Assembly: GCA_049302075.1 (NCBI GenBank)
Contig: JBAQLS010000046.1
Coordinates: 148,436-212,435, forward strand
From: Carboxydocellales bacterium
GTDB lineage: Bacteria > Bacillota > GCA-003054495 > Carboxydocellales > JAJZTU01
DNA: 64,000 nucleotides
Direction: 5' to 3'
Both the position numbers and the translations under genes were made by a program. Shown piece by piece: positions 315-46,270 of this stretch; position 1 is the first letter of the stretch, and every line of letters begins with the position of its first letter. A model generated the notes under the pieces. The model saw nothing but the letters and a program-made list of their open reading frames with translations. It was not told the DNA's origin and searched no databases.

Positions 315-538
315 CGGTCGGGAACCTATCCCGGTTCGGTACTCTTAGCTCCATGCCTTGTAACTGTAAGCTCGTTGGGCTAATCAAAGCACCCAGACCT
401 CGCCAATTCGTCGTCCGTGACTCAGTGGCGAGGCGTCCGCCGTCCATGGCGGCCGGGGTGCTTTGATTGCCCGCCTCGCTAACAGTTACTACGGCACTCC
501 GCCATGAGTACCTACACCGGAACAGGTTCCCGACCTGG
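315..538 (+). repeat. Structured interspersed repeat, family 1, copy 1 (~224 nt, nested stems)
   Basis: Shares ccggtcgg...cccgg..ggtgctcttagctccatgc...ctacggcactccaccatgagcacc..ccgg..ccgacctgg with 23646-23869 and 46046-46270. The outer stem (ggtcgggaacct / aggttcccgacc) pairs with a copy-specific sequence. Confidence 0.7.
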
Positions 539-809
539 GTCATGACCGGGGCGCAGACCTGAGCACAGACCAGGCCAGAAATACTGCGTCGTCCGGGATG
601 CTTGGGAGGGTTATTTATGCTTTACGCTAGTCTCAAATGCTTTTAAGAATCCTTTATTGCCCTTTATAATATCTAATATATATAAACCTATATTGGGTCG
701 AAAGCTTCTATACTCGTTGCTTTACTAGTAATCTAATCCCCAACTCTTTCACGCCCATCCCCACCTTCTTTGCCCTTCCCACTCCCCAGCTTAACCTTGC
801 GGGTCTGGC

Positions 810-1055
810 CCAGGGACGTGGGTAGGTGGGATAAGGCGCGCCTATGCGTAGGTCGGCATTGGGCATGCATGCGGTGGAAACAGGAGGACGCAGGATCCAC
901 GTTGGCTTACAGCCCAATGTAGTCAGCGTACTCTATATCCAGTTAAACACTATCCTGGCAGCGGAACACATATATCCGAAGTCCCCTGTTTCCACCGGCC
1001 GGAGGCCGGCCGGTGGCATCAAGTGCGCCGTTCCCACCTACCCATGTCCCGGCAA
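810..1055. repeat. Long nested inverted repeats in the mraY-murD intergenic insertion (function unknown)
   Basis: ggacgtgggtaggtgggataaggcgcgcc (813-845) is complementary to tgcgccgttcccacctacccatgtcccgg (~1020-1052). Inside, gcggtggaaacagg (~861-876) pairs with cctgtttccaccggc (~987-1001). Confidence 0.4.
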
Positions 1056-1069
1056 TTAGACAGTCAAGT

Positions 1070-2056
1070 TCAGCCTATATTATACATGCCCATGAGGCCG
1101 ATTAGGGAGCAGATTAGCGTGGCTAGCCAAAAGATGCGCACCACTTTTTGCTCTGACCAGCCCCCCAGCTCGAAATGGTGGTGGAGGGGGCTCATACGGA
1201 AAACCCTTTTGCCGGTGGATTGAAAGGAAATCACTTGTATAATTACCGAGAGCGTTTCGGCTACATAAACTCCGCCAATGATGGGTAGCAGTAATTCCGT
1301 TTTAGTTAGGATGGCCATTGTCGCCAGTCCCCCGCCTAGAGCCAGGGAGCCGGTGTCCCCCATGAATACCCGGGCTGGGTGGTTGTTATATCTTAAAAAC
1401 CCTAAACATCCTCCCGCCAGAGCGGCACCGAAGATAGCCACTTCTGGTTTATTGATCATTAAACTTATAATGGTAAAGGCTGAGGCGGTAATCACGGTAA
1501 TTCCTGCTGCCAGACCGTCTAGCCCGTCTGTCAGGTTAACTGCATTGGCAGCCCCTACTGTGACTACCCAAATAAATACAAAATATACCAAAAAGCCGTA
1601 GTCTAATACCGTTCCTGAAAATGGTATTACGATACCAGTCCCCAGCTTTAGGGGGTATGCTGCCACAAAAGCGAGAAATAAGGCCATTAGTGACTGGCCG
1701 AGGATTTTTTCCTTGGCTCTTAAACCAAGGGAGCGCTTTTTGATTACTTTAATGTAATCATCGGTAAAACCTAACAGGCCGTAAAACAGGGTAACCCCGA
1801 TTAACAGCCAGACTTCCGGGCCTCGTCGGCTTACTAATAGTGCTGCTGCCACCAGGCCAGCTAAAAACATCACTCCACCCATAGTAGGGGTGCCCGCTTT
1901 TTGCAAATGCCGCTGCGGACCGTCATTACGAATATTCTGGCCAAATTTTAAGCGATGTAAAAATGGAATGAAAAATGGCCCTGTGATTACCGTCAGTATC
2001 GCTGACAGCCCTAAAGCAATAATGACCCGTTCCATCTCTGCTCTGCCCCTCCCCAC
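1070..2056 (-). CDS. mraY: Phospho-N-acetylmuramoyl-pentapeptide transferase MraY
   Basis: 328-aa polytopic membrane protein whose family motifs (DDYIKV, NAVNLTDGLDGLA, MGDTGSLALGG, PLHHHFE) are diagnostic of MraY. Sits in dcw order. Confidence 0.92.
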   Translation of the reverse strand: MGRGRAEMERVIIALGLSAILTVITGPFFIPFLHRLKFGQNIRNDGPQRHLQKAGTPTMGGVMFLAGLVAAALLVSRRGPEVWLLIGVTLFYGLLGFTDDYIKVIKKRSLGLRAKEKILGQSLMALFLAFVAAYPLKLGTGIVIPFSGTVLDYGFLVYFVFIWVVTVGAANAVNLTDGLDGLAAGITVITASAFTIISLMINKPEVAIFGAALAGGCLGFLRYNNHPARVFMGDTGSLALGGGLATMAILTKTELLLPIIGGVYVAETLSVIIQVISFQSTGKRVFRMSPLHHHFELGGWSEQKVVRIFWLATLICSLIGLMGMYNIG

Positions 2057-2148
2057 AATCCAGCTTTAATTCTGCTTTATACTGCATTAATACCGCTTAT
2101 ACTGCTATAACTGCTTTATATGCTATTACTGCTTTAATACTTCTGGTT

Positions 2149-3612
2149 CTATTCTATTGACGCTGCTATTTCTTCCATTTTCATCCCCCGGGAACCCTTC
2201 ACCAGCACTACATCCCCCGGCTGCAGTATAGCTTGTAGCTGCCTGATGGCCTGCTCTTTTTCTGTACAGGCGAAAATTGACCTTTGCTTCATACCTCGGG
2301 TAGCTGCTTGTGCTGCTATCCATCCGGCTAATTCTCCTAGGGTAACTAAGCTGTCTAGGCCCAGGCTGGCTACAGTATCACCGATTGATCGGTGACCTTT
2401 TTCCGCCTGTTCCCCCAACTCCAGCATATTTCCTAAAACAGCTATCCGCTTACCCTGGCAAGGATATCCGGCCAGCACCTCCAGTGCTGCTCGCATCGAA
2501 GATGGGTTGGCATTATAGGCATCATTAATTACTGTCCAGGGCTTACCTGTCCTAATCTCCAGCCTCATTGCGGAAAGGGCTAACTCTGTTAACCCCTGGC
2601 CAATCTCCTCCTGGCTTAATCCTAACTCTAGCCCTACTCCAATTGCTGCTAAAGCATTTAAGACATTGTGCCGGCCGGGAACGGGTATCTGCACTGACAT
2701 TGGCTTATGTCCTGACACCTTCACCTTAAATTCACTATTGGTTGGCCCGGTCATTTGCCAGTCCGTGGCCTGTAAGTGATTGTTTTCCCCAAAGCCATAG
2801 TAAATGGCCTGACGGTCTAATCCTTCTCCCAGCTTACGCAGCCAGGGATCATCTCCATTTAAGATAGCTGCTCCTGTTGCCGGGAGTTCCGCCAAAAGTT
2901 CACCTTTAGCCTGAGCAATGTTTTCCATTGAACCCAACAGCTCTATATGGGCTTCCCCAATGTTGGAAATCACTCCAATGTCCGGCTGAGCAATCCGGGC
3001 TAGCTGCTGGATTTCCCCCCGGCCTCGCATCCCCATTTCCACAATTGCCGCTTGATGCTCCGGTCCTAGCTCTAATAAGGTTAAGGGCAGACCGATTTCA
3101 TTATTAAAATTGCCACCGGTCTTTAACACCCTGTACTTTTGTTCCAACACTGCGGCAATCATATCCTTGACACTAGTCTTCCCAGTACTGCCGGTAACCG
3201 CCACCACCGGGACTCCGGCTTTCCTGCGATTATACCCAGCTAAATGCTGTAATGCTTGGAGCGTATCTTCCACTAAAATAACCGGAATTGCAATATTTAG
3301 CTCCCTTGAGCTGCCAACCCCAAGCTTTGAGACGTCGGCCTGATGTAGCTCGCTTGTCTGGCTACTCTGAATACCATGTAATTTAGTCCAAGCCTCTGGT
3401 TGGCTGATGATTAGTGCCCCTGCTCCCCCAGCAATAGCCTGAGCCAAAAAATCATGGGCGTCAAACCGCTCTCCCTTTAAGGCTGCAAAAATGCTTCCCG
3501 GCCTTACTTTTCGCGTATCCGTGGAAACCAGATCAAACACCGCATCCGGGTCCCCCTGAATTATCCTTCCCCCTACCGAAGAGGCTATTTCTGTCCAGCT
3601 AAATTGGTACAT
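2149..3612 (-). CDS. murF: UDP-N-acetylmuramoyl-tripeptide--D-alanyl-D-alanine ligase MurF
   Basis: Mur ligase motifs (VTGSTGKTS, central and C-terminal Mur domains). The long ORF extends to 3636, but the ATG at 3612 (MYQFSWTEI...) has an AGGAGG SD and lies 2 nt after the murE stop. Confidence 0.9.
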   Translation of the reverse strand: MYQFSWTEIASSVGGRIIQGDPDAVFDLVSTDTRKVRPGSIFAALKGERFDAHDFLAQAIAGGAGALIISQPEAWTKLHGIQSSQTSELHQADVSKLGVGSSRELNIAIPVILVEDTLQALQHLAGYNRRKAGVPVVAVTGSTGKTSVKDMIAAVLEQKYRVLKTGGNFNNEIGLPLTLLELGPEHQAAIVEMGMRGRGEIQQLARIAQPDIGVISNIGEAHIELLGSMENIAQAKGELLAELPATGAAILNGDDPWLRKLGEGLDRQAIYYGFGENNHLQATDWQMTGPTNSEFKVKVSGHKPMSVQIPVPGRHNVLNALAAIGVGLELGLSQEEIGQGLTELALSAMRLEIRTGKPWTVINDAYNANPSSMRAALEVLAGYPCQGKRIAVLGNMLELGEQAEKGHRSIGDTVASLGLDSLVTLGELAGWIAAQAATRGMKQRSIFACTEKEQAIRQLQAILQPGDVVLVKGSRGMKMEEIAASIE

Positions 3613-3614
3613 GC

Positions 3615-5168
3615 TTAACCTCCTGTCTGCAAACACTGGCGAGCCACTGCCCGGTCATCAAAAGGCAGTGTTTTGTCCCCGATGATTTGATAGCTTTCGT
3701 GGCCTTTGCCAGCTATCAGCACCAGATCCTCCGGTCCGGCCATACTAATGGCATAAGCTATGGCCTCCCTGCGATCCAATACCTTAGCGTACTGCTCAGA
3801 CCCTACAAAATCTCTAATACCTGCTTCTATTTCCTCGATAATAACCACCGGGTCTTCACTCCGCGGGTTATCAGAGGTAATTATGGTATAATCACTCAGT
3901 CGGGCGGCAATGCTGCCCATAATCGGCCGCTTGGTCCGATCTCGGTCGCCGCCACAGCCAAACACTGTAATAATTCGCCCTAAGACAAATTGATTAGCGG
4001 TGTGCAACACATTTTCCAAGCTGTCCGGGGTATGGGCATAATCCACAATCACCCCGAAGCTTTGCCCTTCGTCAATTAGTTCAAAACGACCGGGCACTCC
4101 GGTAACCCCTTCCAACACCTGCTTAATTTCTCCTAAATCTATCTTTTCCAGCAAGCCCACACAAATCGCAGCCAAGGCGTTATAGACACTAAAGATACCC
4201 GTCATGCGTAATTTAAAGTCCGCTTTGCCCCAGGGGGTGGTCACCCCAAAGGATACCCCGCTGGCTTTGACCAAGACGTTGCTAGCCTTAACTGTTGCCT
4301 CACTTTTGATACCATAGGTAAGCACCTGTCCCCGGCTTTTTCCCTGGATAAAGCGTCCGGCCGGGTCATCGATATTAATAATACCATATTTCGGGTGTGC
4401 TTTCCCTCCTGTAGGGTTTAGACCGCTAAAGAGTTTAGTCTTGGCCGCCAGGTAGGCTTCCATATTTTCATGAAAATCCAGGTGATCCTGAGTTAAGTTG
4501 GTAAAAACCGCTATATCAAACTCAATGGCTTCAACCCGACCTAACTCCAGGGCGTGGGAGGATACCTCCATTACTCCATAATCCGCCCCTTTGTCCACCA
4601 TTTTGGCTAGCAGTTGTTGCAGCTCTAGTGGCAAAGGAGTGGTATTGTTAACTGGCAGCACTTCCTCGCCTATTTTGCTATGAATGGTGCCAATTAGTCC
4701 CACTCGATGTCCCCGGGCTTTTAACAGCGCTTCAATTAGATGAGTGCTGGTGGTCTTACCGTTAGTCCCCGTCACCCCAATCATGGTCATTTTCTGAGCC
4801 GGGAATTGGTAGAACCGGGCACTAACCCAGGCTAAAGCTGTTCTGGTGTTATCCACCTGTACCCAACATACCTTGTCCAGCACTTCTGGAGGAAGTCCCA
4901 AAGCTGTGGGGTCCTTTTCCACCAACAGCGCCGCTGCTCCTTGCTCCACCGCCTGGAGGATATAGTTATGCCCATCAACCTTATAGCCCACAATACAAGT
5001 AAACATAAACCCTGGTGCTACCTTCCGGGAATGATGAGCAAGCCCTAGGATTGGAGTTTGCAGCTCCCCTTGGCTTTGTTTTATTTGTAGGTCCTGTACC
5101 AAAGCTTGTAGTTTCATAATTTCCTGTCTTTGCACACCACCAGCCCCCTTGTTTCTAATTTTTGCCAT
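3615..5168 (-). CDS. murE: UDP-N-acetylmuramoyl-L-alanyl-D-glutamate--2,6-diaminopimelate ligase MurE
   Basis: Mur ligase with GVTGTNGKTT P-loop and the DNPR motif typical of DAP-adding MurE. An alternative start is possible at 5117 (MKLQALV...). Confidence 0.88.
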   Translation of the reverse strand: MAKIRNKGAGGVQRQEIMKLQALVQDLQIKQSQGELQTPILGLAHHSRKVAPGFMFTCIVGYKVDGHNYILQAVEQGAAALLVEKDPTALGLPPEVLDKVCWVQVDNTRTALAWVSARFYQFPAQKMTMIGVTGTNGKTTSTHLIEALLKARGHRVGLIGTIHSKIGEEVLPVNNTTPLPLELQQLLAKMVDKGADYGVMEVSSHALELGRVEAIEFDIAVFTNLTQDHLDFHENMEAYLAAKTKLFSGLNPTGGKAHPKYGIINIDDPAGRFIQGKSRGQVLTYGIKSEATVKASNVLVKASGVSFGVTTPWGKADFKLRMTGIFSVYNALAAICVGLLEKIDLGEIKQVLEGVTGVPGRFELIDEGQSFGVIVDYAHTPDSLENVLHTANQFVLGRIITVFGCGGDRDRTKRPIMGSIAARLSDYTIITSDNPRSEDPVVIIEEIEAGIRDFVGSEQYAKVLDRREAIAYAISMAGPEDLVLIAGKGHESYQIIGDKTLPFDDRAVARQCLQTGG

Positions 5169-5263
5169 TCATGGAAATTCTATACCTGAATCAAGAAAAG
5201 ACTCAGAACAAAGTGGAATAAGGGAATTCCAACTCCAACTCTGAGTCCTGCAAAAATTTTCAG

Positions 5264-21362: not shown

Positions 21363-21430
21363 GGCTATTTCCCCCTTTCTTTATCAAAATTGTAGCATAG
21401 GCATTGCAAGAAATCAAACATAGAATTTTA

Positions 21431-21553
21431 CAGGCTGTTGAAATTCCCCGTCCAGCGTTGTCAGCAGAATCGCCAAGATCCTCAACGTACAGCCAGTACG
21501 CCTGCGGCCTTGGCGATTCTGCTTCCTAGCTGGACGAGTTTTTCAACAGCCTG
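21431..21553 (-). repeat. Near-palindromic structured repeat, family 2, copy A (~123 nt, inverted relative to the other copies)
   Basis: caggctgttgaaattccccgtccagc...ccaaggccgcaggcgtactggctgtacgttgagg...gctggacgagtttttcaacagcctg. Shares core and ends with copies at 32684, 47316, 51871 and 57943. Flanked by a 16-bp direct repeat aaacatagaattttac (21414-21429 and 21594-21609). Confidence 0.7.
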
Positions 21554-21607
21554 CCTGGGGTCATAGCTTTCCGCCTAGCTCCGCTAGACGCATTGAAACA
21601 TAGAATT

Positions 21608-23572
21608 TTACTTTTCCTTGGCACGCTCCATAACTGCCTTCCAGATTCTCGCTGGATAGGACCCACCCACAACTCCCTGTAGATAATGCTTCCGGTCAGT
21701 CCGGTCATAACCCACCCAGACTGCAGCAACTAACTCCGGGGTATAGCCAACAAACCAGGCATCCTTATTACCCTTAATGCCCCGAAACTCCGGGGTGTTC
21801 GGTAGTTGGGTAGTTCCTGTCTTGCCGGCCGCCGAAAAATTATACCTAGCTGTTATAATAGCGTCTTGCCCAGCACCTCGCCCAATGGCTTGCCCATATA
21901 CTGCTGCCTCCACCGTCAATCTGGCCTCACGTCCGGTGCCGGAGTTTACTGCTTCCGCTAATAAACCGGTCATCTTTTGGGCGGTATCCTCAGTTATCAC
22001 CTGTTCCACCCTCAGTTTTTTCCCTTTAATCTCCAGTCCATTACTACCCACCAACCGTATAATTGTAGTTGGTTCTCGGTATATTCCCTCAGCCCCAAAA
22101 GTACCAAAGGCAGCCGCCATTTGATAAGGAGAAACTCCCCCTGTTAAACCCCCCAGAGCCAAAGACAGGTTGCGGTCCCCTTCCACTAAGGGCAAGCCTA
22201 GTCCAACTCCCATCCGAAAACCGGAGTTTACCCCAATCTCCTTCAACAGCTTAACTGCATATACATTGACCGAATTACGCAAAGCAAAGGTCATATCCAT
22301 GGAGCCATAACTATGACCCCCATAATTCTGAGGTCTGTAACCCCCTAAAGCGGTAATGCTATCATCCAGACGGTAACTGACCGGGTAGCCTTTTTCTAAG
22401 GCTGGAGCATAGACTACCAATGGTTTAATGGTCGAACCCGGTTGACGTTTTAACTGAGTTGCCCGGTTAAAAGCCCGGACTGTAGGATAATCCCGCCCTC
22501 CCACTAAAGCCCGTACTTCCCCTAGATGATAGTCCACCACTGCAATCGCCCCCTGAACCTGGACTCCATTCACACCGGCTGGAAACTGGCTGCCATCTGC
22601 CAGCACTGCCTCTGCCGCTCCTTGCACTTTGGGATCCAGGGAGGAATAAATGCTGTAACCTCCGGTATATAGCTGTTCCTCTTCAATCCCATATCTATCC
22701 CGGGCTTCCCGGATAACCTGATCCACAAAATAGGGAAACCGGTAACCCGCCAAATTCCTCAGCCCCACCACCTGAACGGCCGCGGCCCTGGCCTTATCTG
22801 CATCCATTGGAGGAATCAGCCCATAACCCTCCATTAAGGTGAGCACCAAATTCCTTCTGATTGCAGCAGCCTGCATATTGCGGTAGGGTGAATAAAGTCC
22901 CGGATTTTTGGCAATCCCGGCCAACAAAGCTGCCTCTTCCGGTTTTAGCTTGTCTACATCTTTGCCATAATAAAGCCGGGAAGCTGCTTGCACTCCATAA
23001 ACCCCGTGACCAAAATAAATCCGGTTTAAATACAGCCCTAGAATTTCGTCCTTAGAATATCTTAACTCTAGCTCTCTAGCCATCACTAACTCTTTGAGCT
23101 TTCGTTGCCAGGTCTTCTCCTTTGAAAGAAAAGCATTGCGGGCTAACTGCTGCGTGATGGTGCTCCCGCCTTGGGACAGTTCTTCCTCCCGAATATTTAC
23201 TAGTGCAGCCCTGGCAATCCCAATTACATCTAAGCCGGGATGGTCATAAAAGCGAACATCTTCCACCGCAAGAAAGGCATCTTTTAACTGTTGAGGAATA
23301 TGGTCATACTTAACAACCACCCTATTTTCCGGGCCATGAAGCTGGGCGATTAACATCCCCGTCCGGTCATAAACCATGGTGTTACTAGCCGCCACCAAGT
23401 CCCCATTAACCCATTGGTGTTTGTACTGCTCATAAAAAGCCATCCCCAGCCCTGTAACCATGGCCCCAACTGCCAACAGGCTAAAGATAATCAACAGTAT
23501 CAAGCCTAGGACCAGCTGCTTAAAGGATACTTTACTCCGCTGTGACTTGTGCCCCATCTGTCGTTGCCCCAT
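21608..23572 (-). CDS. Class A penicillin-binding protein (PBP1A-type, bifunctional glycosyltransferase/transpeptidase)
   Basis: GT51 motifs (EDVRFYDHPGLD, RQGGSTITQQL), then transpeptidase STIK...KTGTT. The ORF runs to 23728 through the family-1 repeat. The ATG at 23572 (MGQRQMGHKSQRS... then TM) is the likelier start. Confidence 0.85.
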   Translation of the reverse strand: MGQRQMGHKSQRSKVSFKQLVLGLILLIIFSLLAVGAMVTGLGMAFYEQYKHQWVNGDLVAASNTMVYDRTGMLIAQLHGPENRVVVKYDHIPQQLKDAFLAVEDVRFYDHPGLDVIGIARAALVNIREEELSQGGSTITQQLARNAFLSKEKTWQRKLKELVMARELELRYSKDEILGLYLNRIYFGHGVYGVQAASRLYYGKDVDKLKPEEAALLAGIAKNPGLYSPYRNMQAAAIRRNLVLTLMEGYGLIPPMDADKARAAAVQVVGLRNLAGYRFPYFVDQVIREARDRYGIEEEQLYTGGYSIYSSLDPKVQGAAEAVLADGSQFPAGVNGVQVQGAIAVVDYHLGEVRALVGGRDYPTVRAFNRATQLKRQPGSTIKPLVVYAPALEKGYPVSYRLDDSITALGGYRPQNYGGHSYGSMDMTFALRNSVNVYAVKLLKEIGVNSGFRMGVGLGLPLVEGDRNLSLALGGLTGGVSPYQMAAAFGTFGAEGIYREPTTIIRLVGSNGLEIKGKKLRVEQVITEDTAQKMTGLLAEAVNSGTGREARLTVEAAVYGQAIGRGAGQDAIITARYNFSAAGKTGTTQLPNTPEFRGIKGNKDAWFVGYTPELVAAVWVGYDRTDRKHYLQGVVGGSYPARIWKAVMERAKEK

Positions 23573-23645
23573 TTCCCATGTATGTTCAAGCTTGATTTTA
23601 TCATAAAAAAACAACCAAGACATGTTCTGAGTTGAAAAACATTGA

Positions 23646-23869
23646 CCGGTCGGATACAGGTCCCGGCTGGGTGCTCTTAGTTCCATGCTTAGCGGCTCTA
23701 AGCTGGTTTGGATAATAAAATTGACCAACCTCGACGATACGGCATCCTTGCCTAGGCGTTGAGGTTTCCGACGTCCTTGTCGGAAAGGTCGATTTTATTA
23801 CCCAACTGCGCTAAGAGCCGCTACGGCACTCCACCATGAGCACCCCACCGGAACCGGTATCCGACCTGG
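23646..23869 (+). repeat. Structured interspersed repeat, family 1, copy 2
   Basis: Same architecture as 315-538. Outer stem ggtcggatac / gtatccgacc. Inner hairpin stems carry two G-U pairs when read on the + strand. Confidence 0.7.
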
Positions 23870-23920
23870 CGGGTTTTTGGGGAGATGGCGGGGTGGGGTA
23901 TTTAGATAAAGCCGGGGTTG

Positions 23921-26413
23921 CTATGGCCGCCCATGACGGCGTCCTTTGTCCTTATCTCTATCATTAGGAAGATTGCCATCTGTGCTGCCTGAGAGGGGTG
24001 GTGTAGTATCGCTAGTAATGCCGCCAGGCGACCCCAAAGGATCTGTAACTCCTGTAGGGTCGGTGGAACCTGAGTCATTGGGAACTTTTCCTCCTGTTGG
24101 ACCTCCGGCCCCACTACCGTGGCTGACTATATCCCCAGCATTACCAGTACCTCCATCGGTTCCCGAATTACCTGGACTTCCTGGGCTACCAGGACTCCCT
24201 ATTGTTCCCGTATTGCCTGAATTACCTGTATTACCTGTATTACCTGAATTAACCGTATTGCCGGTACTGCCATTTGCCCCGGTAGTGTTTTGCTCCCCGG
24301 TGGGTTTTCCTCCCCCTGGGGTCTGCTGACCTTTGCTCCCAGGCGAAACGCCCTCCCCCTGGCCAGAGTGCCTAGCCAGTTCTTCCGGTGATAGTGAATC
24401 CCAGACCCGAACATCCTTACGGTAGATGAATTTCCCTTGATACTTGGGGAAACTCTTTTTAGGTACGCCGGCTAAGGCTTGTTCCATCACCTTTTTCCAT
24501 AGCACTGCCGGATATGAACCGCCAACTACGCCCCGCAGGTAATGGGCTGTATCGGTGCGGTCATAGCCAATCCATACCGCTGCAACCAGTTCGGGTGTAT
24601 AACCGACAAACCAAGCATCCTTATTACCGCTGATTTTTTTAAATTCCGGGCTGTCGGGAAGCTGGGTGGTACCCGTCTTTCCGGCCACGGGTCGATCCAA
24701 CCTGGCCCTGGTCCCTGTTCCTCCTCGGACTACCTCTTGGAGCATTTCCGTCATTACTGCAGCGGTATGGGAATGCATTACTTTATTTACTTTGGGCAGG
24801 TCGTCAAAAACCACCGCCCCGGAGTAATCAGTAATCTTCACTATGGCGTGAGGCTCCACTTGAATTCCCTGGTTGGCAAAAGCCCCATAGGCTGAGGCCA
24901 TTTGCAGCGGTGAAACCCCGTGGGTCAGTCCGCCTAGAGCCAAGGGCAGTACTTTGTCCGAGGGTACCAGTTCAAAGCCTAACTTGCAGGCAAAATTATA
25001 GCCTGTTTCCAGCCCAATTTTAGCTAATAATTTTACCGCACAAATATTAACTGAATACTTCAGCGCTGAAGCCATGGTCATATACCCTCGAGAACCACCG
25101 CTATAGTTTTCCGGCGCATATTTCCCAAAACGAACGGGAAAATCATCCAGCAGCATATAAGGAGGGTACTTGGCCTCCAAAGCTGGTCCGTACACTGCTA
25201 TCGGCTTAAAGGTTGACCCAGGCTGACGCCGGGAGTCTACCGCCCGGTTAAAGCCCCGCTTGACATCATAGCCTCTGCCCCCTACTAAAGCTTTGATTTC
25301 TCCATTATTATAATCCAACACAGCAACCGCGCCCTGTACTGGCAGCTTATCTGGGCCTGTGGATGGAAAATTATAATTGTACGACCACACCGTCTGAGCA
25401 GCCTGCTGAACTTTGCTATCCAGAGCGGTGTAAATCCTCAACCCCCCGCCGTAAACCTCTTTTTCACTGATTCCCAGGCGCTTCCCGGCCTCATCTACCA
25501 CAGCATCCACATAATAAGGATACTCATAGGGATTGTTCAGCGGGGTGGAAGCTAATTTGCAGCCATCCAGTTTAGCCTGCTCTTCCTGCTTCTTAGTAAT
25601 AAACTCGTTTTCCTCCATTAGACTGAGGACAGTCTCCATCCTTTGCCTGGCCTCCTCCGGCTCCCGAAAGGGGGAATACCGATTAGGCGCTTTTAGTAAA
25701 CCAGCTAAAACAGCAGCCTCCGGCAGGTTTAAGTCCTTGGCAGTTTTGCCAAAATAAGTCCGGGCGGCAGCCTCCAAGCCATAAGCCCCATGGCCAAAAT
25801 AAATGCGGGTCAGGTACATATTTAAAATCTCTTCCTTGGAATACTTCTTCTCTAGTTCCAGAGCCAAAAGAACTTCTTTGATTTTGCGATTATAGGTTTT
25901 CTCCGGGGTTAGCAGGGAGTTTTTCACCAACTGCTGGGTAATAGTACTGGCCCCTTCGACAATCCGCCCCTCCCGGAAGTTAGCTACCATGGCTCTAACC
26001 ACAGCTTCCAGATCAACCCCCATATGATGATAAAAGCGCACATCCTCAGTAGCTACAAAAGCATCCTTCACCACCTGGGGCAGCTCCCCAGGCAATGGCA
26101 GGCGGTCCTCCACCCCTTTAAGTATGGCAATGACCCTGCCATCCCGATCATAGATGATGGTATTAAAAGCTGTAGCCAAGTCCGCCGCAGTCCAAGCCGG
26201 AGTGGCCGGAAGGGCCATGGCTACTACTATGTATCCTAAGAAAAAAGCAAGCAGCAGAGTAAAGAAAAAAACGCCCGTCCCCCCCGATAGCATAAACCTT
26301 TTACCCTTTTTGTCCTTTGACTTATCCGTTTGCTTAACCGTTGACGTATCTGTCGACTTACCTGTTGGCTTATCTGTTGGCTTATCTGTTGGCTTATCTG
26401 TTGGTTCAACCAT
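23921..26413 (-). CDS. Class A penicillin-binding protein (second PBP1A paralog) with Lys/Thr/Asp-rich N-terminal tail and Gly/Ser/Thr/Asn-rich C-terminal tail
   Basis: GT51 (EDVRFYHHMGVD, GASTITQQL) plus transpeptidase (STFK, KTGTT). ATG at 26413 follows an AAGGGGTGAG SD. 12-bp tandem repeats at ~26344-26403 encode (PTDK)n. The ~190-aa C-terminal tail is low complexity. Confidence 0.85.
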   Translation of the reverse strand: MVEPTDKPTDKPTDKPTGKSTDTSTVKQTDKSKDKKGKRFMLSGGTGVFFFTLLLAFFLGYIVVAMALPATPAWTAADLATAFNTIIYDRDGRVIAILKGVEDRLPLPGELPQVVKDAFVATEDVRFYHHMGVDLEAVVRAMVANFREGRIVEGASTITQQLVKNSLLTPEKTYNRKIKEVLLALELEKKYSKEEILNMYLTRIYFGHGAYGLEAAARTYFGKTAKDLNLPEAAVLAGLLKAPNRYSPFREPEEARQRMETVLSLMEENEFITKKQEEQAKLDGCKLASTPLNNPYEYPYYVDAVVDEAGKRLGISEKEVYGGGLRIYTALDSKVQQAAQTVWSYNYNFPSTGPDKLPVQGAVAVLDYNNGEIKALVGGRGYDVKRGFNRAVDSRRQPGSTFKPIAVYGPALEAKYPPYMLLDDFPVRFGKYAPENYSGGSRGYMTMASALKYSVNICAVKLLAKIGLETGYNFACKLGFELVPSDKVLPLALGGLTHGVSPLQMASAYGAFANQGIQVEPHAIVKITDYSGAVVFDDLPKVNKVMHSHTAAVMTEMLQEVVRGGTGTRARLDRPVAGKTGTTQLPDSPEFKKISGNKDAWFVGYTPELVAAVWIGYDRTDTAHYLRGVVGGSYPAVLWKKVMEQALAGVPKKSFPKYQGKFIYRKDVRVWDSLSPEELARHSGQGEGVSPGSKGQQTPGGGKPTGEQNTTGANGSTGNTVNSGNTGNTGNSGNTGTIGSPGSPGSPGNSGTDGGTGNAGDIVSHGSGAGGPTGGKVPNDSGSTDPTGVTDPLGSPGGITSDTTPPLSGSTDGNLPNDRDKDKGRRHGRP

Positions 26414-26810
26414 TAGCTCACCCCTTATCCCGGTGCACAAAAAAAACCGGACAATAATGAGCATAACAGTAAATATCTGTAAAATCAAACATAATTATCC
26501 TGCAAAAAACACAAAAAAAAGCAACCCTCACCAGTTCCCCCTTTTTTCCAAGCCATAGCCTTCCCTTTCAAAAATCGCTTATGAAAAAGCATATCCCAAA
26601 TTTAGATAAAAACGCAACCCCTCTAGCCTATTGTTATAGTCATCAAAATGCCAGCTCAAAACTAATGATAAAACTGTCTCTTAAGGTAGTTATTAAAAAT
26701 TTCTCCAGAAGTTTTCTCACAACCCGTAAAGGTTGTGTTTGCGCTTTTCAACCCTTATGGGTTGTCCTATTATAATTAAATAGTCATGTTCGAACAGTCC
26801 GTCCCCCTCC

Positions 26811-28102: not shown

Positions 28103-28492
28103 CTAGGTAAGCTGAAGTTTTTGATGTACAAAATTCATCACATGGTCAGCATCAACAACAGCTTTTTGCATATCGCTTTCTAAAATTTCAATCTCAAAAG
28201 GATATCTTGGCTGTACACCATATGGCGTAAGATTTACACAAGATTGACTTATCTCATCAAAGGTTTCATCAATATCGGCACACATTTTACATATTAATCT
28301 TAAGTCGTGAGTCCTAGGTGGCTCTACATCTTGATGTATAAGATAGCCTTTTAGCACTTTCTCTGCTGCTTGCTCACAGTGATAGCAAATGATTTCTATG
28401 GGAACCGGGCGCATATCTAAGAGATACTTTGCACAGCTGATATCTTTGTTTGCAAAATCAAGCCATTCTTTGACTATGTTGATTTTGTCCAT
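28103..28492 (-). CDS. HEPN-domain protein (toxin component of HEPN/MNT pair)
   Basis: 129 aa, all-helical. AEKVLKGYLIHQDVEPPRTHDLRLI fits the HEPN R-x(4-6)-H region. Overlaps the upstream MNT gene by 35 nt. Confidence 0.8.
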   Translation of the reverse strand: MDKINIVKEWLDFANKDISCAKYLLDMRPVPIEIICYHCEQAAEKVLKGYLIHQDVEPPRTHDLRLICKMCADIDETFDEISQSCVNLTPYGVQPRYPFEIEILESDMQKAVVDADHVMNFVHQKLQLT

Positions 28493-28805
28493 GCAGCATC
28501 ACCCCATCTCTGGCAACTGTTCTTTCGATAGTAGGCAACAGCTTGCGCTGATGAAAATTACTGGCTCTGCTTACGAGGATATCAATTGGCTTCTTTTGTT
28601 CTTTGTAGATGGCACTGCCAATGAGCTGCATGGCTTCAATTGGACGAATGCCGCCATCAGGAATCACTATATAAAGGTCGAAATCACTATCTTCTGAGGG
28701 CGTACCATAAGCATAGGAGCCAAAGAGGTATATCGCATCGGCTTCAACTGTATTCAGAATCGTTTGCTTAATATTTTCCAACTCATTGCTCGTTTGGATA
28801 TTCAT
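28458..28805 (-). CDS. Minimal nucleotidyltransferase (MNT; antitoxin component of HEPN/MNT pair)
   Basis: IYLFGSYAYGTPSEDSDFDLYIVIP is the GS...DxD polymerase-beta-type nucleotidyltransferase motif. Confidence 0.85.
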   Translation of the reverse strand: MNIQTSNELENIKQTILNTVEADAIYLFGSYAYGTPSEDSDFDLYIVIPDGGIRPIEAMQLIGSAIYKEQKKPIDILVSRASNFHQRKLLPTIERTVARDGVMLHGQNQHSQRMA

Positions 28806-32683: not shown

Positions 32684-32806
32684 TAGGCTGTTGAAAAACC
32701 CGTCCAGCTAGGAAAAATCATTGCCAAGGCCGCAGGTGTACTGGCCGTACATCGAGGACCTTGGCAATGATTTTGACAACGCTGGATGGGGAATTTCAAC
32801 AGCCGT
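32684..32806 (+). repeat. Near-palindromic structured repeat, family 2, copy B
   Basis: taggctgttgaaaaacccgtccagc...ccaaggccgcaggtgtactggccgtacatcgagg...gctggatggggaatttcaacagcc. The middle stem keeps pairing with a different sequence (aaatcattgccaagg / ccttggcaatgattt). Preceded by a (gtgaac)x3 microrepeat. Confidence 0.7.
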
Positions 32807-41042: not shown

Positions 41043-41060
41043 TGGAATCGTCCTTTCTGG

Positions 41061-41837: not shown

Positions 41838-41925
41838 ACAAGATAAAAAGTCAGTTGCTTTTTACTTTTTATTAGATTAAACTATACCCAAAAGACCCAA
41901 AAAGTATCTATTAAAAAGATATATC

Positions 41926-42660
41926 ATGCAATGGATAATTGTCAAGAAGGAAAAAAGGAAGAAGAATATGAATATGAATATGAATTTAACAGAGCGCCGT
42001 AAACAATTTCTTCAGCAGATAATGCGTCTATATGAAAAGTCGGGACTGCCGGTTCATTATGTGACTCTGGCTAATTTACTAGGTGTCAGCAAATGGACAG
42101 CTTATGATATGTTAAAAGAATTAGAAAAAAGCGGTTTATTAAAAAGAGACTATATGGTTAATCCCAATGAGTTAGGGCGTTCAGTTATTGTTTTTTCGCC
42201 TACAACTAAAGCAGATGAATTGTTTGGACAAATCAGAGAAGTAACATTTGATGCTGACCAACTGAAGGGGGTAAAGAAAAAGGTACTAAAAATGGTCTTT
42301 CAACTCCAGTCAACTAAGAATTTACAACAGTCCTTAGAATTTATTTTAAACGAAATTCCAAAAGTAAACGTCCGCACAGAATTTTGTATATATATCTTGG
42401 CAATATTAATTTTATATCTTCAGGTATTGGGAAAAGTTCAAAAAGATATGGTAAAAAATATTATTGAGGTTGCTGATCGTCATGATATAAAAATTACAGT
42501 CTTCGTAGGCATGGTCGTGGGCACGGCGATTCAGTCTGTTGCCCAGGAACTCGATCCGAGGATCAGTAATTTAATGGGTTCATTTTTAAAGCATCTTGAC
42601 CAATTGAATCTGAACGAAATGCAGATCCTTATTGAATTTCTTCAGGAAGCAATGAATTAG
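41926..42660 (+). CDS. Winged-HTH transcriptional regulator (DtxR/MarR-like N-terminus) with uncharacterised C-terminal domain
   Basis: ERRKQFLQQIMRLYEKSGLPVHYVTLANLLGVSKWTAYDMLKELEKSGLL fits a DtxR-type wHTH. The start region contains (AATATG)x3 encoding MNMNMN, so the real start may be at 41983. Confidence 0.55.
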   Translation: MQWIIVKKEKRKKNMNMNMNLTERRKQFLQQIMRLYEKSGLPVHYVTLANLLGVSKWTAYDMLKELEKSGLLKRDYMVNPNELGRSVIVFSPTTKADELFGQIREVTFDADQLKGVKKKVLKMVFQLQSTKNLQQSLEFILNEIPKVNVRTEFCIYILAILILYLQVLGKVQKDMVKNIIEVADRHDIKITVFVGMVVGTAIQSVAQELDPRISNLMGSFLKHLDQLNLNEMQILIEFLQEAMN

Positions 42661-42738
42661 TGTAATACAATGCAATCAGGAATAAAGGATAAGGAGCCTG
42701 AATAATTCGGGCTCCTTATCCCTAGGAAGGGAATTTGT

Positions 42739-44412
42739 ATGATTAGAAAGAGGATACGTCATATCGGTCGTTATAAAGAAGTTGCTGCAGTTCTAGCACG
42801 AAACGGTTTCGGTTTTATCTTAGTTGAAACTGGTTTATCTGATCTCCTGCCTTTTTCCAGGAGATTCATTCCTAAATTGGACACAGGTGAAATAATGTCT
42901 GTTGGGCAACGTATTAGGCAAGTGATTGAAGAATTAGGTCCGACTTTCATTAAAATGGGACAAATTGCAAGTACACGTCCAGATCTTGTTCCTGCAGCAA
43001 TAATTACTGAACTGGAAAAATTACAAGATAATGTACCGTCATTTCCTTTTAGCGAGATTCGCCAAATTATTCAAGAAGAACTCGGAATCCAAATCGAAAA
43101 GCTTTTTGTTGACTTTGAGGAGGTGCCATTAGCCGCAGCATCGATTGGGCAGGTTCATCGTGCGGTATTATTTAGCGGGGAAACTGTAGCAGTTAAAGTT
43201 CAACGTCCACATATTTCTACAATAATTGAAACTGATCTGGAAATTCTTATGGATATTGCGGGCCTTGCCGAGCAACGATTAGATTGGGCAAAAAGGTATC
43301 AAATTACGGAAATTATAGACGAATTCGCCAAATCCCTACGTGCTGAACTTGATTATACGATGGAAGGACGAAATGCGGAAAAAATGGCACTTCAATTTTC
43401 GGATAATTCCAAGATCAGCATTCCAAAAATCTATGAGGATTACTCTGCAAAAAAAGTACTGACCATGGAATATATTCAAGGTACGAAGCTAAGTCAAACC
43501 GAACGATTAATTGAATTAGGATATGACACTTCCGAGATTGCTAAACAGATTGTCGAAGCAATTTTTCATCAAATTCTAATTGAAGGCTTTTTTCATGGTG
43601 ATCCACATCCCGGAAATATTCTTGTTTTACCTGACCAGGTAATCACTTTTCTAGATTTTGGAATGGTTGGACGGCTGGCACCTCAAATGAAACATCATTT
43701 TGCATCGTTAGTTATTAGCATGCTCCGGAAAAATACGGATGATATGATTCGAGTGATCTTAGATATGGGAATTGTCCCCAGCGATATAAATATCTCTAGA
43801 TTACGCAGTGATATCGATGCTTTAAGAGACAAATATCTGGATATTCCATTTAAACAAGTTAGTTTAGGTCGGGCGGTTAATGAACTATTTACTGTTGCTT
43901 TCAATCATCGGATTAGGATATCGCCAGATTTAACTCTTTTGGGAAAAACACTTCTCACGCTCGAAGGGAGCGTAGAGAAACTTGCACCTGACTTAAGTGT
44001 AATGGATATAGCTCGACCTTTCGGATATAAGTTGCTAAAAGAGCGTTATAATATCAATACAATTACCAAAAAAACTTTCAAAAAAATTAATGAATATGTA
44101 GATATTCTTTTAGATTTACCAAAGCTCATCAAGGAAATGACACATAATTTAAAAGACGGTAAAATTAGGGTTGAAGTGAGGATTTCAGAAATTGGTTTAG
44201 TTTTGAAAAAATTAGATCGAATCAGTAATCAATTGTCTTTTAGCATAGTTTTGTTGTCTTTTAGTATTTTAATGATGGGTATAATTATCGCGTCGGCTTT
44301 AGGAGATCGGCTGTTTATTTGGCATTTTTCGGCGGTTGATTTAGGATTTATGATAGCATCTTTAATGTTCGTTTGGCTGCTATTTTCCATTCTAAGGTCC
44401 GGAAGGTTCTAG
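42739..44412 (+). CDS. ABC1/UbiB-family atypical protein kinase with C-terminal TM helices
   Basis: 557 aa with the characteristic UbiB N-terminal region (YKEVAAVLARNGFGF), kinase-like core (AAASIGQVHRA, HGDPHPGNIL, DFG) and C-terminal hydrophobic segments. Confidence 0.85.
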   Translation: MIRKRIRHIGRYKEVAAVLARNGFGFILVETGLSDLLPFSRRFIPKLDTGEIMSVGQRIRQVIEELGPTFIKMGQIASTRPDLVPAAIITELEKLQDNVPSFPFSEIRQIIQEELGIQIEKLFVDFEEVPLAAASIGQVHRAVLFSGETVAVKVQRPHISTIIETDLEILMDIAGLAEQRLDWAKRYQITEIIDEFAKSLRAELDYTMEGRNAEKMALQFSDNSKISIPKIYEDYSAKKVLTMEYIQGTKLSQTERLIELGYDTSEIAKQIVEAIFHQILIEGFFHGDPHPGNILVLPDQVITFLDFGMVGRLAPQMKHHFASLVISMLRKNTDDMIRVILDMGIVPSDINISRLRSDIDALRDKYLDIPFKQVSLGRAVNELFTVAFNHRIRISPDLTLLGKTLLTLEGSVEKLAPDLSVMDIARPFGYKLLKERYNINTITKKTFKKINEYVDILLDLPKLIKEMTHNLKDGKIRVEVRISEIGLVLKKLDRISNQLSFSIVLLSFSILMMGIIIASALGDRLFIWHFSAVDLGFMIASLMFVWLLFSILRSGRF

Positions 44413-44470
44413 ATAACAGTATAAATTTCATACTTAGTATTTATTTTAACAATACCTAAGGATTTTTCCT

Positions 44471-45178
44471 CTACGATGCTTTTCTACCGTATTTGAATAC
44501 CAGGCCACCTTTATAGGCAGGTATTTCCACTAGGTCCACCTTGGAAATTTTAATTATTACTCCAGCCCCCTCTAGGTCAGCAATTAGACCATAGGTCACT
44601 TTCAGCATGTTTTCCATATTCTCTGGGTCCCCAATTGCCGAAATCTCAAAGGGTATACCCTGAGTGCGGTTTATAGGTAATTTGTTCACCAACAGGTTAC
44701 GTCCTGCTTCATGGACCGAGGTGTTAGCCACCACCCGTTGGCCATTGACAGCTATAGCTTCCGCCCCTGCATAACGTAGAATGTTAATAATATCCTTAAT
44801 ATCCCCGGAAAAAACCTGAGTAGCCGTAGTCTTCCGATCATCCATAGTTACGTACAGTCCAGGACCTCGTAGTGGTACCTCCCCAGTTAGCATTTGTATT
44901 TGGGTTATCTCCTTAGAAACCTCCGCCGACCTACCCGTCACCACAACTCCACTTTTATTACGTTCCAGCTCCTGACGCAGCTTGGTAACCCGGCCAGTAA
45001 GCTGGGTCTGCTTTAACTTGGCCTGGTTTAAAACCGCAATCATGGATTGATAACGCTGGGTGGAATTATTAACTTGTTTGCGGATTTCCATTGTCGCCTT
45101 TGCCTGGGTCGATAGCAGTAAGCCCAACACAATACTAACCGCAAAAAGCGAAAGATAAAAGTGCCAATAACGAGACAA
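44471..45178 (-). CDS. DUF881 (YlxW/YlxX-like, division-cluster associated) protein
   Basis: N-terminal TM segment, coiled coil and DUF881 core. Tandem with a paralog. Confidence 0.75.
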   Translation of the reverse strand: MSRYWHFYLSLFAVSIVLGLLLSTQAKATMEIRKQVNNSTQRYQSMIAVLNQAKLKQTQLTGRVTKLRQELERNKSGVVVTGRSAEVSKEITQIQMLTGEVPLRGPGLYVTMDDRKTTATQVFSGDIKDIINILRYAGAEAIAVNGQRVVANTSVHEAGRNLLVNKLPINRTQGIPFEISAIGDPENMENMLKVTYGLIADLEGAGVIIKISKVDLVEIPAYKGGLVFKYGRKAS

Positions 45179-45213
45179 TCCAGTTCACCTCTTGATATGT
45201 GTTTATATATACC

Positions 45214-45927
45214 TTAGATCAATGGGTTGGAAAAATGAAACTGGGGTTTCTCCCTGTAGGGCGGTAAGCTTAGCACCCGTACCTCCTGAACATCCACCTT
45301 TATACCATAGCGTTGCTCTAAGCTGCTTAGTAATGGCATTACATCCATATTAATTGAGGTACTCAACGCTCTAGCTTCACCAACAGCCATTATTTTATAA
45401 GGTGGTGCAACCAGTACCTTATTAATAAAAATGGTGGTGCCTCCACAAAATATTTCAGAATTAGCAATCAGCCTCAGGTCATTAACCGCCACCCCCTCCG
45501 CACCGCCTGTCCAGAAAGCATTGACAATTTCCCGGAGAAAGGATTCATGGATAAAATAATTATTAGGGTCTGTACCCTGTTCGTGTGTTTTTTCACTGTC
45601 ACTCAGCGTTACAATCAAGCCCGGACCTTTCAGTCCCTCCAAGCCGGCCCGCATTTTAGTGGCCGCTAGCTCATCCTCCAGACTTTTAGACAGGTTGTTC
45701 GATTGCTGATATTCCCTAATGCGCTTTTCCAAGCTATCTGCTTCTTTTCGCATATTCTCCGAATCCTGCTCTACTTGGATGAGGGTTCCGATAATATCCT
45801 CACTGCGCAAGTTGGACACACTATTGCGGACGATACTTTGCTCAGCCTTATACTGGGTCATGGCCAGAATGCCAAAAATAAAAAACGCAATAGCCACCAA
45901 AACCTGCCAGGACATTTTCTTCATCAC
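45214..45927 (-). CDS. DUF881 (YlxW/YlxX-like) protein, paralog
   Basis: Same architecture as 44471-45178. Confidence 0.75.
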   Translation of the reverse strand: MMKKMSWQVLVAIAFFIFGILAMTQYKAEQSIVRNSVSNLRSEDIIGTLIQVEQDSENMRKEADSLEKRIREYQQSNNLSKSLEDELAATKMRAGLEGLKGPGLIVTLSDSEKTHEQGTDPNNYFIHESFLREIVNAFWTGGAEGVAVNDLRLIANSEIFCGGTTIFINKVLVAPPYKIMAVGEARALSTSINMDVMPLLSSLEQRYGIKVDVQEVRVLSLPPYREKPQFHFSNPLI

Positions 45928-46045
45928 TATACCTCCTGAAGTTAACTAAGGAATAACCCTCCCTGCTAGGTTACCCGTAAAAAACTTACATAATTCAGGT
46001 TAGTGTGGAGTTTACCATTTGCAGTTTGCGTTTGGGGTCTAGTCT

Positions 46046-46270
46046 CCGGTCGGTTGCCTAACCCGGCGGGGTGCTCTTAGCTCCATACCGTGCGGCTCTA
46101 AGCACAGATGGCCTAATAAAATTGACCGACCTGGACAATACGGCATCCTTGCCTAGGTGTCCAGGTTGCCGCCTTCCGTGGCGGCAAGGTCAATTTTATT
46201 GGCCATCTGCGCTTAGAGCCGCTACGGTACTCCACCAGGAGCACCCCACCGGGCCAGGCAACCGACCTGG
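46046..46270 (+). repeat. Structured interspersed repeat, family 1, copy 3
   Basis: Same architecture as copies 1 and 2. Outer stem ggtcggttgcc / ggcaaccgacc differs in sequence from the other copies but still pairs. Middle stem gcggctctaagc / gcttagagccgc. Inner hairpin loop atacggcatccttgcctagg is shared with copy 2. Confidence 0.7.

Follow-up and report, generated by a model that had tools for sequence, protein, structure and literature searches.

TwoAYGGAY RNA elements in intergenic spacers of a Carboxydocellales bacterium behave as a multicopy, lineage-specific repeat with a selectively maintained fold

Results

Three copies of a long hairpin lie in intergenic spacers

The window analyzed here, a 64-kb stretch of DNA from a Carboxydocellales bacterium, contains three full copies of an element of approximately 225 nt. 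The copies, which share 70 to 80% identity and are all assigned to the minus strand, are referred to here as c1 (positions 314 to 538), c2 (23646 to 23869), and c3 (46046 to 46270). c1 occupies the mraY-murD spacer (mraY stop at 1070, murD start at 270), and 44 nt separate its 3' end from the murD ATG downstream. The neighbors of the other two copies were named by Pfam annotation. c2 is flanked by tandem PBP1A genes (23921 to 26488 and 21608 to approximately 23600), and c3 is flanked by a GerE/LuxR regulator gene (46530 to 47282) and a DUF881 gene (45214 to 45927), the start of which lies 119 nt downstream. There is no reading frame that stays open in all of the copies. An initial annotation of this DNA had reported three copies of about 224 nt beside these same mraY/murD, PBP1A, and DUF881 genes; the copies and neighbors are as it described, except that c1 starts at 314 rather than 315, and all of the helix sequences that it quoted were found and are complementary. 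The covariance model that it had proposed as a check was built (R1) and run on the window, where it scored c1, c2, and c3 at 247.8, 241, and 244.5 bits, respectively, and found exactly these three copies, also with filters off.

Each copy is one extended hairpin of approximately 87 pairs, topped by two apical stem-loops. In c1, the loop of hairpin 1 (435 to 454, minus strand) reads AUGGAC and the apex of hairpin 2 (397 to 434, minus strand), UCACGGACGA, contains ACGGAC; both fit AYGGAY. The loop of hairpin 1 is AAGGAC in c2 (23766 to 23785, minus strand) and ACGGAA in c3 (46167 to 46186, minus strand). Hairpin 2 of c2 (23728 to 23765, minus strand) and of c3 (46129 to 46166, minus strand) have the same apex, CCUAGGCAAGGAUGCCGUAU, with the loop motif AAGGAU. 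A 20-nt apex, atacggcatccttgcctagg, is identical between these two copies even though the supporting stems differ, with compensatory changes in the stem beneath it in c3. The strict AYGGAY motif is relaxed in c2 and c3 to ARGGAY or ACGGAA, that is, at position 2 or 6.

Below the two hairpins, a closing stem of approximately 68 pairs is broken by a symmetric GGA/GGA internal loop on the minus strand, formed in c1 by a 5' GGA at 498 to 500 and its partner at 350 to 352, in c2 by 23830 to 23832 and 23682 to 23684, and in c3 by 46231 to 46233 and 46082 to 46084. In an alignment of five sequences, comprising c1, c2, c3, and two orthologous copies, this loop is unchanged in all five and has two invariant G-U pairs on its flanks; together, the two apical loops and the internal loop supply four invariant GGA motifs per element. 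An outer helix of approximately 34 pairs extends beyond the inner ~160 nt that are covered by the Rfam model described below. Its termini, CCAGGTCGG and CCGACCGG, are conserved in all copies, and the next stretch of stem varies. Upstream of c1 in the RNA sense (539 to 586, minus strand) lies an array of 12-nt units ending in C-N-GGT (GGCCTGGT, CTGTGCTCAGGT, CTGCGCCCCGGT, and CATGACCCAGGT), the last of which is the 5' end of the element. This array is shorter by one unit in a 98%-related strain, and its counterpart at c3 is a duplicated 19-mer (46271 to 46308).

Selection maintains the pairing

RNAalifold analysis of the three copies yielded 90 pairs, with compensatory changes in 26. In the five-sequence alignment, pairing is kept in 96.1% of 435 cells, and both sides have changed in 28 of the 87 pairs, compared with 16.2 ± 2.3 in shuffled alignments; none of 500 shuffles reached 28, which bears out the earlier proposal of a structured family with selected pairing. 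When the 3' partners were slid by 1 to 3 columns, the number of double-changed pairs fell to between 0 and 3. A single copy has a folding energy of -136 kcal/mol (z = -12), and the plus-strand fold is nearly as good as that of the minus strand.

Comparison with orthologous copies in related strains provided a small but clean natural experiment. c2 and its orthologue L011 differ at 27 paired positions, and L011 has just 3 nonpairs, whereas the null expectation is a mean of 23.9 and a minimum of 14. c1 and its orthologue L004 are 96% identical within the element and 86 to 87% identical in the flanks, indicating that constraint on c1 continued after insertion. Because the orthologues have accumulated changes at or below the rate of the flanking spacer and yet keep almost all of their pairs, these results demonstrate that selection acts on a single-stranded fold, which is actively maintained after insertion.

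The elements belong to the TwoAYGGAY family

The initial annotation could match the element to no RNA family. We found that all three copies match the Rfam family TwoAYGGAY (RF01731) end to end, each covering model positions 1 to 168, on the minus strand only. Against a curated gathering score of 43 bits, c1 scored 47.8 bits (346 to 504), c3 scored 56.7 bits, and c2 scored 42.7 bits, 0.3 under the threshold. A whole-window Rfam run at the gathering score reported c1 alone, owing to the speed filters that were on in that run. The elements are therefore members of a described RNA family, of a type with a long P1 stem, and not a new antisense RNA; in annotation, the hairpins should be labeled RF01731 on the sense strand. 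A large closing stem (P1), often of more than 20 pairs, is a trait of the family according to the supplement of Weinberg et al. 2010 (PMC2864571), and such a stem can be seen in the Pelotomaculum and gut members whose sequences have been published. A tandem-GA feature of TwoAYGGAY is mentioned in PMC4333381. Several copies per genome also occur in Psychromonas and Pelotomaculum. For the sequence subfamily found here, a search of 185,579 species-representative genomes returned nothing beyond one remnant, and a search of JGI metagenomes returned no match.

The minus strand is favored, in the sense of the neighboring genes

We infer both the minus strand and the ends of the element from sequence. 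In the five-sequence alignment, 23 cells are G-U when read on the minus strand, compared with 6 on the plus strand (A-C cells on the minus strand), and two G-U pairs are invariant on the minus strand. This excess, together with the Rfam match, suggests that the element is sense, rather than antisense, to its neighbors. The opposite had been suggested earlier, namely, that the plus strand was functional and antisense to every neighboring gene, on the basis of two stem positions that are G-U on the plus strand only. c2 has 3 such pairs, but minus-only G-U pairs are far commoner. The strand assignment is confounded by replication, in that the G-rich leading strand is again the minus one, and mutational bias, or single-stranded DNA hairpins on the lagging-strand template, would produce an equal G-T asymmetry.

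No promoter or terminator was found flanking any copy on the minus strand in a consensus scan. The element has no recognizable signals of its own and is therefore most likely transcribed within host operon RNAs. That it is instead a trans-acting sRNA gene with its own promoter and terminator, of the CsrB/RsmZ sponge type, or an antisense RNA read from the plus strand, seems to us improbable. A sponge would fit the Rfam clan that the family shares with Csr/Rsm RNAs, the short T-run that c2 and L011 carry 7 nt past the stem, and the occurrence of several copies, since Rsm sponges can be multicopy. However, c1 and c3 lack a T-run, neither strand has a sigma-70-like promoter upstream of the element, the consensus scan of the minus strand revealed no separate transcription unit, and each element offers two loop GGA sites and no more. 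For an antisense RNA, the plus strand folds almost equally well, and its hairpin 1 is followed by a T-rich stretch with a terminator-like score in c2 and c3. Against this, the Rfam model scores on the minus strand alone, and on the plus strand, two invariant positions would be conserved mismatches of C with A.

Orthologous sites are filled in close relatives and empty in more distant ones

We compared the three sites with their counterparts in related genomes. Filled orthologous sites were found in L004 (98% identity in MraY), L011 (94% in PBP1A), and L005 (97% in DUF881). The mraY-murD site is empty in L001 to L003 (62-nt gap), the PBP1A-PBP1A site in L010 (98-nt gap, which contains a terminator), and the GerE-DUF881 site in L006 and L007 (147-nt gap). 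The relatives with empty sites are about 70 to 84% identical, compared with 94 to 98% for those with filled sites, and all three sites are empty in a sister species (about 77 to 84% protein identity). The sequences of the empty sites are too diverged to define insertion boundaries. The sister species carries an internally deleted remnant next to glyS (L009, 2412 to 2487) that matches the 3' arm of c1 at 90% identity (E = 8e-9). All four independent insertions, namely, c1, c2, c3, and the glyS remnant, are sense to the flanking genes. The elements thus behave as a multicopy, lineage-specific repeat that was gained, or is being lost, in intergenic spacers, and the filled and empty sites and the decayed remnant show that it turns over like a mobile repeat.

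These comparisons bear on whether the element could be a 5' untranslated leader, on the sense strand, that senses a signal or protein and controls murD, PBP1A, and DUF881. All three intact copies precede a cell envelope gene by 44 to 119 nt and are sense to it, as a leader would be. Of the approximately 59 junctions between genes in the window, approximately 16 involve cell envelope genes, for a nominal chance of about 0.02 that three of three would do so, a weak statistic because the category was chosen after the fact. The functional tie to cell wall genes that the initial annotation had implied is not supported, however. At none of the three junctions is the position upstream of the orthologous genes conserved across species; the orthologous junctions work without the element in related genomes, and the fourth independent insertion follows glyS. 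Within the window, the element is likewise missing beside a D-Ala-D-Ala carboxypeptidase gene and at six other dcw junctions. The family as a whole was judged not to be cis-regulatory by Weinberg et al. 2010 (PMC2864571), and several gut members in the published alignment have a reversed stop-codon mark (PTS) downstream, which was read as the end of a convergent gene. We therefore regard control of these genes by the element as very improbable.

The same turnover raises the question of a purely selfish, nonautonomous DNA repeat, MITE- or REP-like, whose RNA has no role. A transposase encoded elsewhere would require its hairpin, in single-stranded DNA, to excise and insert it, or hairpin-templated repair would keep its arms complementary, and the transposase would recognize the conserved loops and termini. 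Several copies, filled or empty orthologous sites, and one decayed remnant are what such a repeat would leave, and the termini CCAGGTCGG...CCGACCGG are conserved beside a variable stem. An unrelated hairpin nearby (810 to 1052) has similar termini, CCAGGGACG...CGTCCCGG, and a TSD-like repeat of 15 nt flanks a second family of hairpin repeats in the window. L011 has a mosaic structure, with segments like those of c1, c2, and c3, suggesting conversion between copies, one metagenome contig ends inside the element, and the favored minus strand is the lagging-strand template. The initial annotation had named terminal repeats and target-site duplications as the marks of a simple MITE. Presence/absence polymorphism was found at all three sites, and terminal inverted repeats are present, although these are unspecific since the whole element is a hairpin, but no target-site duplication accompanies any copy. 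No direct repeat abuts both ends of c1, c2, or c3, and words of at least 7 nt common to both 120-nt flanks all lie 17 to 106 nt away from the ends. Moreover, there is no transposase in the window or in the fetched loci, and no match to the element in plasmids, phages, or viral contigs. A single transposase poorly explains GGA loops that are conserved from Gammaproteobacteria to Clostridia over very different stems, and the conservation of c1 above its flanks between strains points to constraint in place. A purely selfish repeat is, in our view, rather unlikely.

Discussion

We consider it reasonably probable that the element is a multicopy, structured RNA repeat that is likely mobile, is cotranscribed with its host operons, and may bind CsrA. 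As part of the host operon RNA, with the minus strand as the sense strand, the ~225-nt hairpin would offer its twin GGA hairpins as a putative docking site to a GGA-reading, dimeric RNA-binding protein, and its long double-stranded stem could stabilize the transcript or turn it into an RNase III substrate. TwoAYGGAY has been an orphan family since 2010, and its sole functional proposal is binding by CsrA, hypothesized in PMC4333381. [quoted passage not shown] This core is the consensus of high-affinity sites. The loop GGA sites of an element are approximately 30 nt apart, a spacing within the range that a CsrA dimer could bridge. A chemotaxis receptor gene encoded in the window suggests that the organism is motile; neither csrA nor fliW is present in the window or in the fetched loci.

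A more far-reaching form of this reading is that TwoAYGGAY is a mobile posttranscriptional module, in which a nonautonomous repeat would spread among intergenic spacers, always in the sense orientation, and plant a predicted high-affinity twin-GGA site for CsrA, or another dimeric protein, in operons, preferentially those of the cell envelope. We regard this version as a long shot. If it were true, Firmicutes would gain RNA-based titration or recruitment of CsrA, which to our knowledge has been shown so far in Proteobacteria only; we know of no established RNA antagonist of CsrA in Firmicutes, whose known antagonist of this protein is FliW. The copies alone reveal no new kind of system, but they could be used in any test for RNA partners of CsrA in Firmicutes.

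The copies share with published TwoAYGGAY RNAs the two adjacent GGA-loop hairpins, GGA/GA internal loops within a closing stem of great length, multiple copies per genome, and occurrence in Clostridia; they differ in the relaxation of the loop to ANGGAN in c2 and c3. Bacillaceae-1 RNA (RF01690), likewise an orphan motif, has GGA in two hairpin loops and is a separate family, with no match at c1, c2, or c3. It is far shorter and has no giant closing stem. It was put forward as a CsrA binder together with TwoAYGGAY in PMC4333381.

The CsrB, CsrC, and RsmX/Y/Z sponges resemble the element in displaying GGA in hairpin loops and in belonging to clan CL00106. Each of those sponges is a gene in its own right, with a promoter, a terminator, and many GGA sites, whereas the element has only two loop GGAs and one internal loop and lies in operon spacers, where no promoter or terminator of its own was found. 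In their genomic habit, the copies resemble MITEs and Correia/NEMIS, ERIC, RUP, BOX, and REP/BIME repeats, which are also multicopy, intergenic, long hairpins that are cotranscribed with their neighbors, differ in presence among close relatives, and decay through internal deletion. The element is set apart from these repeats by the lack of a detected target-site duplication and of a known cognate insertion sequence, by a nonpalindromic apex of two distinct hairpins with conserved loops, and by its membership in a family that spans phyla with its loop motifs conserved.

Three intergenic elements have a TwoAYGGAY-type fold under constraint

The three hairpin elements reported in the initial annotation, here c1, c2, and c3, were recovered at 314-538 (first placed at 315), 23646-23869, and 46046-46270. 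They can be aligned end to end with pairwise identities of 70 to 80%. All of the helix sequences originally quoted are present in the copies and are complementary, and, as described, a conserved apex sits over a changing stem: the inner hairpin ends in the same apex in c2 and c3, with a different stem below it. The start-to-start distances of 23,332 and 22,400 nt are nearly even, which may be coincidence with only three copies. R1, a covariance model derived from the copies, retrieved exactly these three from the window, also with filters off.

The initial annotation had not been able to match the elements to an RNA family. Comparison with Rfam 15 assigned all three to RF01731 (TwoAYGGAY), with scores of 47.8 bits for c1, 42.7 for c2, and 56.7 for c3 against a curated threshold of 43. 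Every match is on the minus strand and spans model positions 1-168, the whole model; a run over the entire window gave c1 only, because of its speed filters. Read on the minus strand, the element is composed of an outer helix of ~34 pairs that lies beyond the Rfam model, a symmetric GGA/GGA internal loop, further helices contributing ~34 more pairs, and an apex where two neighboring hairpins each carry GGA in their loop. The apical loops of c1 (AUGGAC and ACGGAC) fit AYGGAY exactly, and those of c2 (AAGGAC and AAGGAU) and c3 (ACGGAA and AAGGAU) are relaxed variants. These results show that the element has a TwoAYGGAY-type fold and that its family was already known.

A single copy folds into one extended hairpin (-136 kcal/mol, z = -12), and RNAalifold on c1-c3 gave 90 pairs, 26 of them with compensatory changes. 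We then examined pairing in five sequences, namely c1, c2, c3, and two orthologous copies from related genomes (L004 and L011). Pairing was kept in 96.1% of 435 cells. Both sides had changed in 28 of 87 pairs. Column shuffles gave 16.2 ± 2.3 such pairs, and so high a count occurred in 0 of 500; when partners were slid by 1 to 3 columns, the number of such pairs dropped to 0-3. The earlier claim of selection on pairing is upheld by this alignment, and the structure is both genuine and constrained. A protein-coding reading was rejected since no frame is open throughout all copies; gene callers did not call element-derived ORFs in L004.

Orthologous copies retain the fold

Within the element, c1 and its orthologue L004 are 96% identical, compared with 86-87% in the flanking spacer, so that the element is conserved like adjacent coding sequence. 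Divergence between c2 and L011 is equal inside and outside the element (85% identity; flanks, 86%). Substitutions between these two fall in 27 paired columns, and L011 has only 3 non-pairs, compared with a mean of 23.9 and a minimum of 14 when the substitutions were placed at random. L011 combines c1-, c2-, and c3-like states in a mosaic; part of the compensation may therefore reflect conversion between copies rather than independent changes. These comparisons show that selection, or a process equivalent to it, has kept the fold.

The minus strand is likely functional

The initial annotation chose the plus strand from two G-U positions, a choice that is reversed by a count over all pairs. Pairs that are G-U only on the minus strand number 5 in c1, 4 in c2, 6 in c3, 4 in L004, and 4 in L011, compared with 1, 3, 0, 1, and 1, respectively, that are A-C there and G-U only on the plus strand. 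Two G-U pairs that border the GGA/GGA loop occur without exception in the five sequences; read on the plus strand, they would be C-A mismatches kept in every copy. The Rfam orientation and these patterns jointly indicate that the minus strand is likely the functional one. This is the sense strand for almost every gene of the window, so the element, which had been called antisense to its neighbors, is sense, on their coding strand. The minus strand is at the same time the leading strand and rich in G (plus-strand GC skew of -0.01 to -0.18 throughout), and the same G-U asymmetry would be expected from mutational bias or from single-stranded DNA hairpins on the lagging-strand template.

The element family turns over at the species scale

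Orthologous loci were reached via homologues of the neighboring proteins. The mraY-murD site of c1 is filled in L004 (98% MraY identity) and empty, with a 62-nt gap, in L001-L003 (84%). The site of c2 between two PBP1A genes is filled in L011 (94% PBP1A) and empty in L010 (77%; from the same MAG as L001), where a 98-nt gap holds an ordinary terminator. At the GerE-DUF881 site of c3, the contig of L005 (97% DUF881) ends inside a partial copy, and L006 and L007 (70%) are empty with a 147-nt gap. In the sister species, a pattern scan located an internally deleted remnant directly after glyS (L009 2412-2487), consisting of the 5' terminus and 57 nt of the 3' arm, with 90% identity to c1 (E = 8e-9). 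Apart from this remnant and the partial L005 copy, neither the window nor ~70 kb of DNA from relatives yielded further or degenerate copies. From the filled and empty sites and the remnant, we conclude that the family turns over at the species scale: copies are gained at intergenic positions that were empty before, and deletion removes them. Relative to their flanking genes, the four independent insertions all have the sense orientation. The element is multicopy and lineage specific.

The PBP1A tandem pair at 21608-26488 has DNA identity of up to 74% over a 135-nt stretch. The tandem arrangement is also present in the sister species (L010 7533-11977), so the duplication is older than the c2 insertion.

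Wider searches returned little. The two-block pattern GGAGTNCCGTAG...ATGGANCTAAGAG had 0 matches in species-representative genomes and JGI metagenomes, GGTNCTCNTGGNGGAGTNCCGTAG had 0 in metagenomes, and ATGGANCTAAGAGNACCNNNCCGG had one in genomes, the remnant itself, and 0 in viral contigs. The apex 18-mer had 0 matches in viral contigs, and blastn against plasmids and phages gave no match to the element. The JGI metagenome contig with the c3 orthologue stops inside the element in a noise-like, T-rich stretch (L005 1-75). This break fits repeats interrupting assemblies, which may be why the metagenome pattern scans were empty.

The main rival explanation is a purely selfish repeat acting at the DNA level. 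A target-site duplication, which the initial annotation had tied to a MITE, was looked for at c1-c3 and none was found, and no transposase lies near the copies. The behavior of the elements is that of lineage-specific repeats, not dedicated regulators.

A link to cell wall genes is unproven

All three copies lie at junctions with cell wall or division genes, as first described. Approximately 16 of the ~59 junctions in the window touch cell wall or division genes, giving a nominal chance near 0.02 for three of three, for a category picked after the fact. Other observations count against the association: relatives' equivalent junctions lack the element, as do other cell wall junctions in the window, including that of a D-Ala-D-Ala carboxypeptidase gene, and the neighbor of the L009 remnant is glyS. 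We consider the association unproven.

Other repeats in the window

A second hairpin family of ~125 nt occurs on the minus strand at 32691-32805, 51889-52003, and 57951-58065 (GGCTGTTGAAATTCCCC...CGGGTTTTTTAACAGCC), with a fourth, inverted copy at 21431-21553. RNAalifold on three copies gave 47 pairs, 12 with compensatory changes, and three copies begin 3-5 nt past a minus-strand gene's stop codon. The segment that holds the inverted copy has on its two sides a 15-nt direct repeat free of mismatches, TAAAATTCTATGTTT (21596-21610 and 21416-21430). Rfam gave no match to this family, even with the cutoff relaxed to E ≤ 10. The family may be more novel than the TwoAYGGAY copies.

The mraY-murD spacer also contains a third long hairpin (243 nt, 810-1052), at a distance of 270 nt from c1. 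Its plus strand folds at -136 kcal/mol (z = -9.7), and its two ends, CCAGGGACG...CGTCCCGG, are similar to the termini of the TwoAYGGAY-like copies. Rfam gave no match to this hairpin, and R1 with filters off aligned it end to end at 37 bits on the plus strand; it is kept in L004 and missing from L001. Degenerate extra copies of the terminal motif C-N-GGT (539-586 and 46271-46308 in the window, L004 2110-2144, and L009 2385-2411) lie immediately 5' of c1, c3, L004, and the L009 remnant, in 1-3 copies spaced 8-19 nt apart, with a 12-nt period at c1. The array of L004 is one unit shorter than that of c1, and c2 and L011 have none.

Elsewhere, a HEPN-domain gene adjoins a small overlapping ORF (28103-28805). 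The equivalent pair in L010 encodes a nucleotidyltransferase and a HEPN protein, and the pair looks like a toxin-antitoxin module.

Possible mode of action

An element with its own promoter and terminator was rejected, as a search of the minus strand next to each copy revealed neither a sigma-70-like promoter nor an intrinsic terminator. The elements would instead be transcribed within operon RNAs, where the twin GGA hairpins could dock a dimeric GGA-reading protein and the near-perfect double-stranded stem might also be an RNase III substrate. The two GGAs are ~30 nt apart, and hairpin 2 of c2 and c3 (GCAAGGAUGC) matches the high-affinity site for CsrA, a GGA-reading protein. Neither csrA nor fliW, encoding its antagonist, is present in the window or the relatives' loci. 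That the window encodes a chemotaxis receptor points to a motile organism. Upstream of a gene for a methyl-accepting chemotaxis protein (60072-61760) is a c-di-GMP-I riboswitch aptamer (62212-62298, minus strand), which scored 67 bits against a threshold of 35.

Comparison with known TwoAYGGAY members

TwoAYGGAY was first described by Weinberg et al. (2010, PMC2864571) from human gut metagenomes, Gammaproteobacteria, and Clostridiales, and was graded as probably an RNA and not cis-regulatory. Gardner and Eldai (PMC4333381) proposed from motif analysis that it binds CsrA in Clostridia; we found no later validation of this binding in the literature. To these accounts, our analysis adds a series of filled, empty, and remnant sites and evidence from orthologues for a maintained fold. 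In the published alignment, Psychromonas ingrahamii has at least 5 copies and Pelotomaculum thermopropionicum ~4. The closing stem is often very large (Weinberg et al. 2010, supplement), and the flanking arms of the gut and Pelotomaculum members pair over ~100 nt per side in that alignment. On the minus strand, the elements described here share this long-arm architecture.
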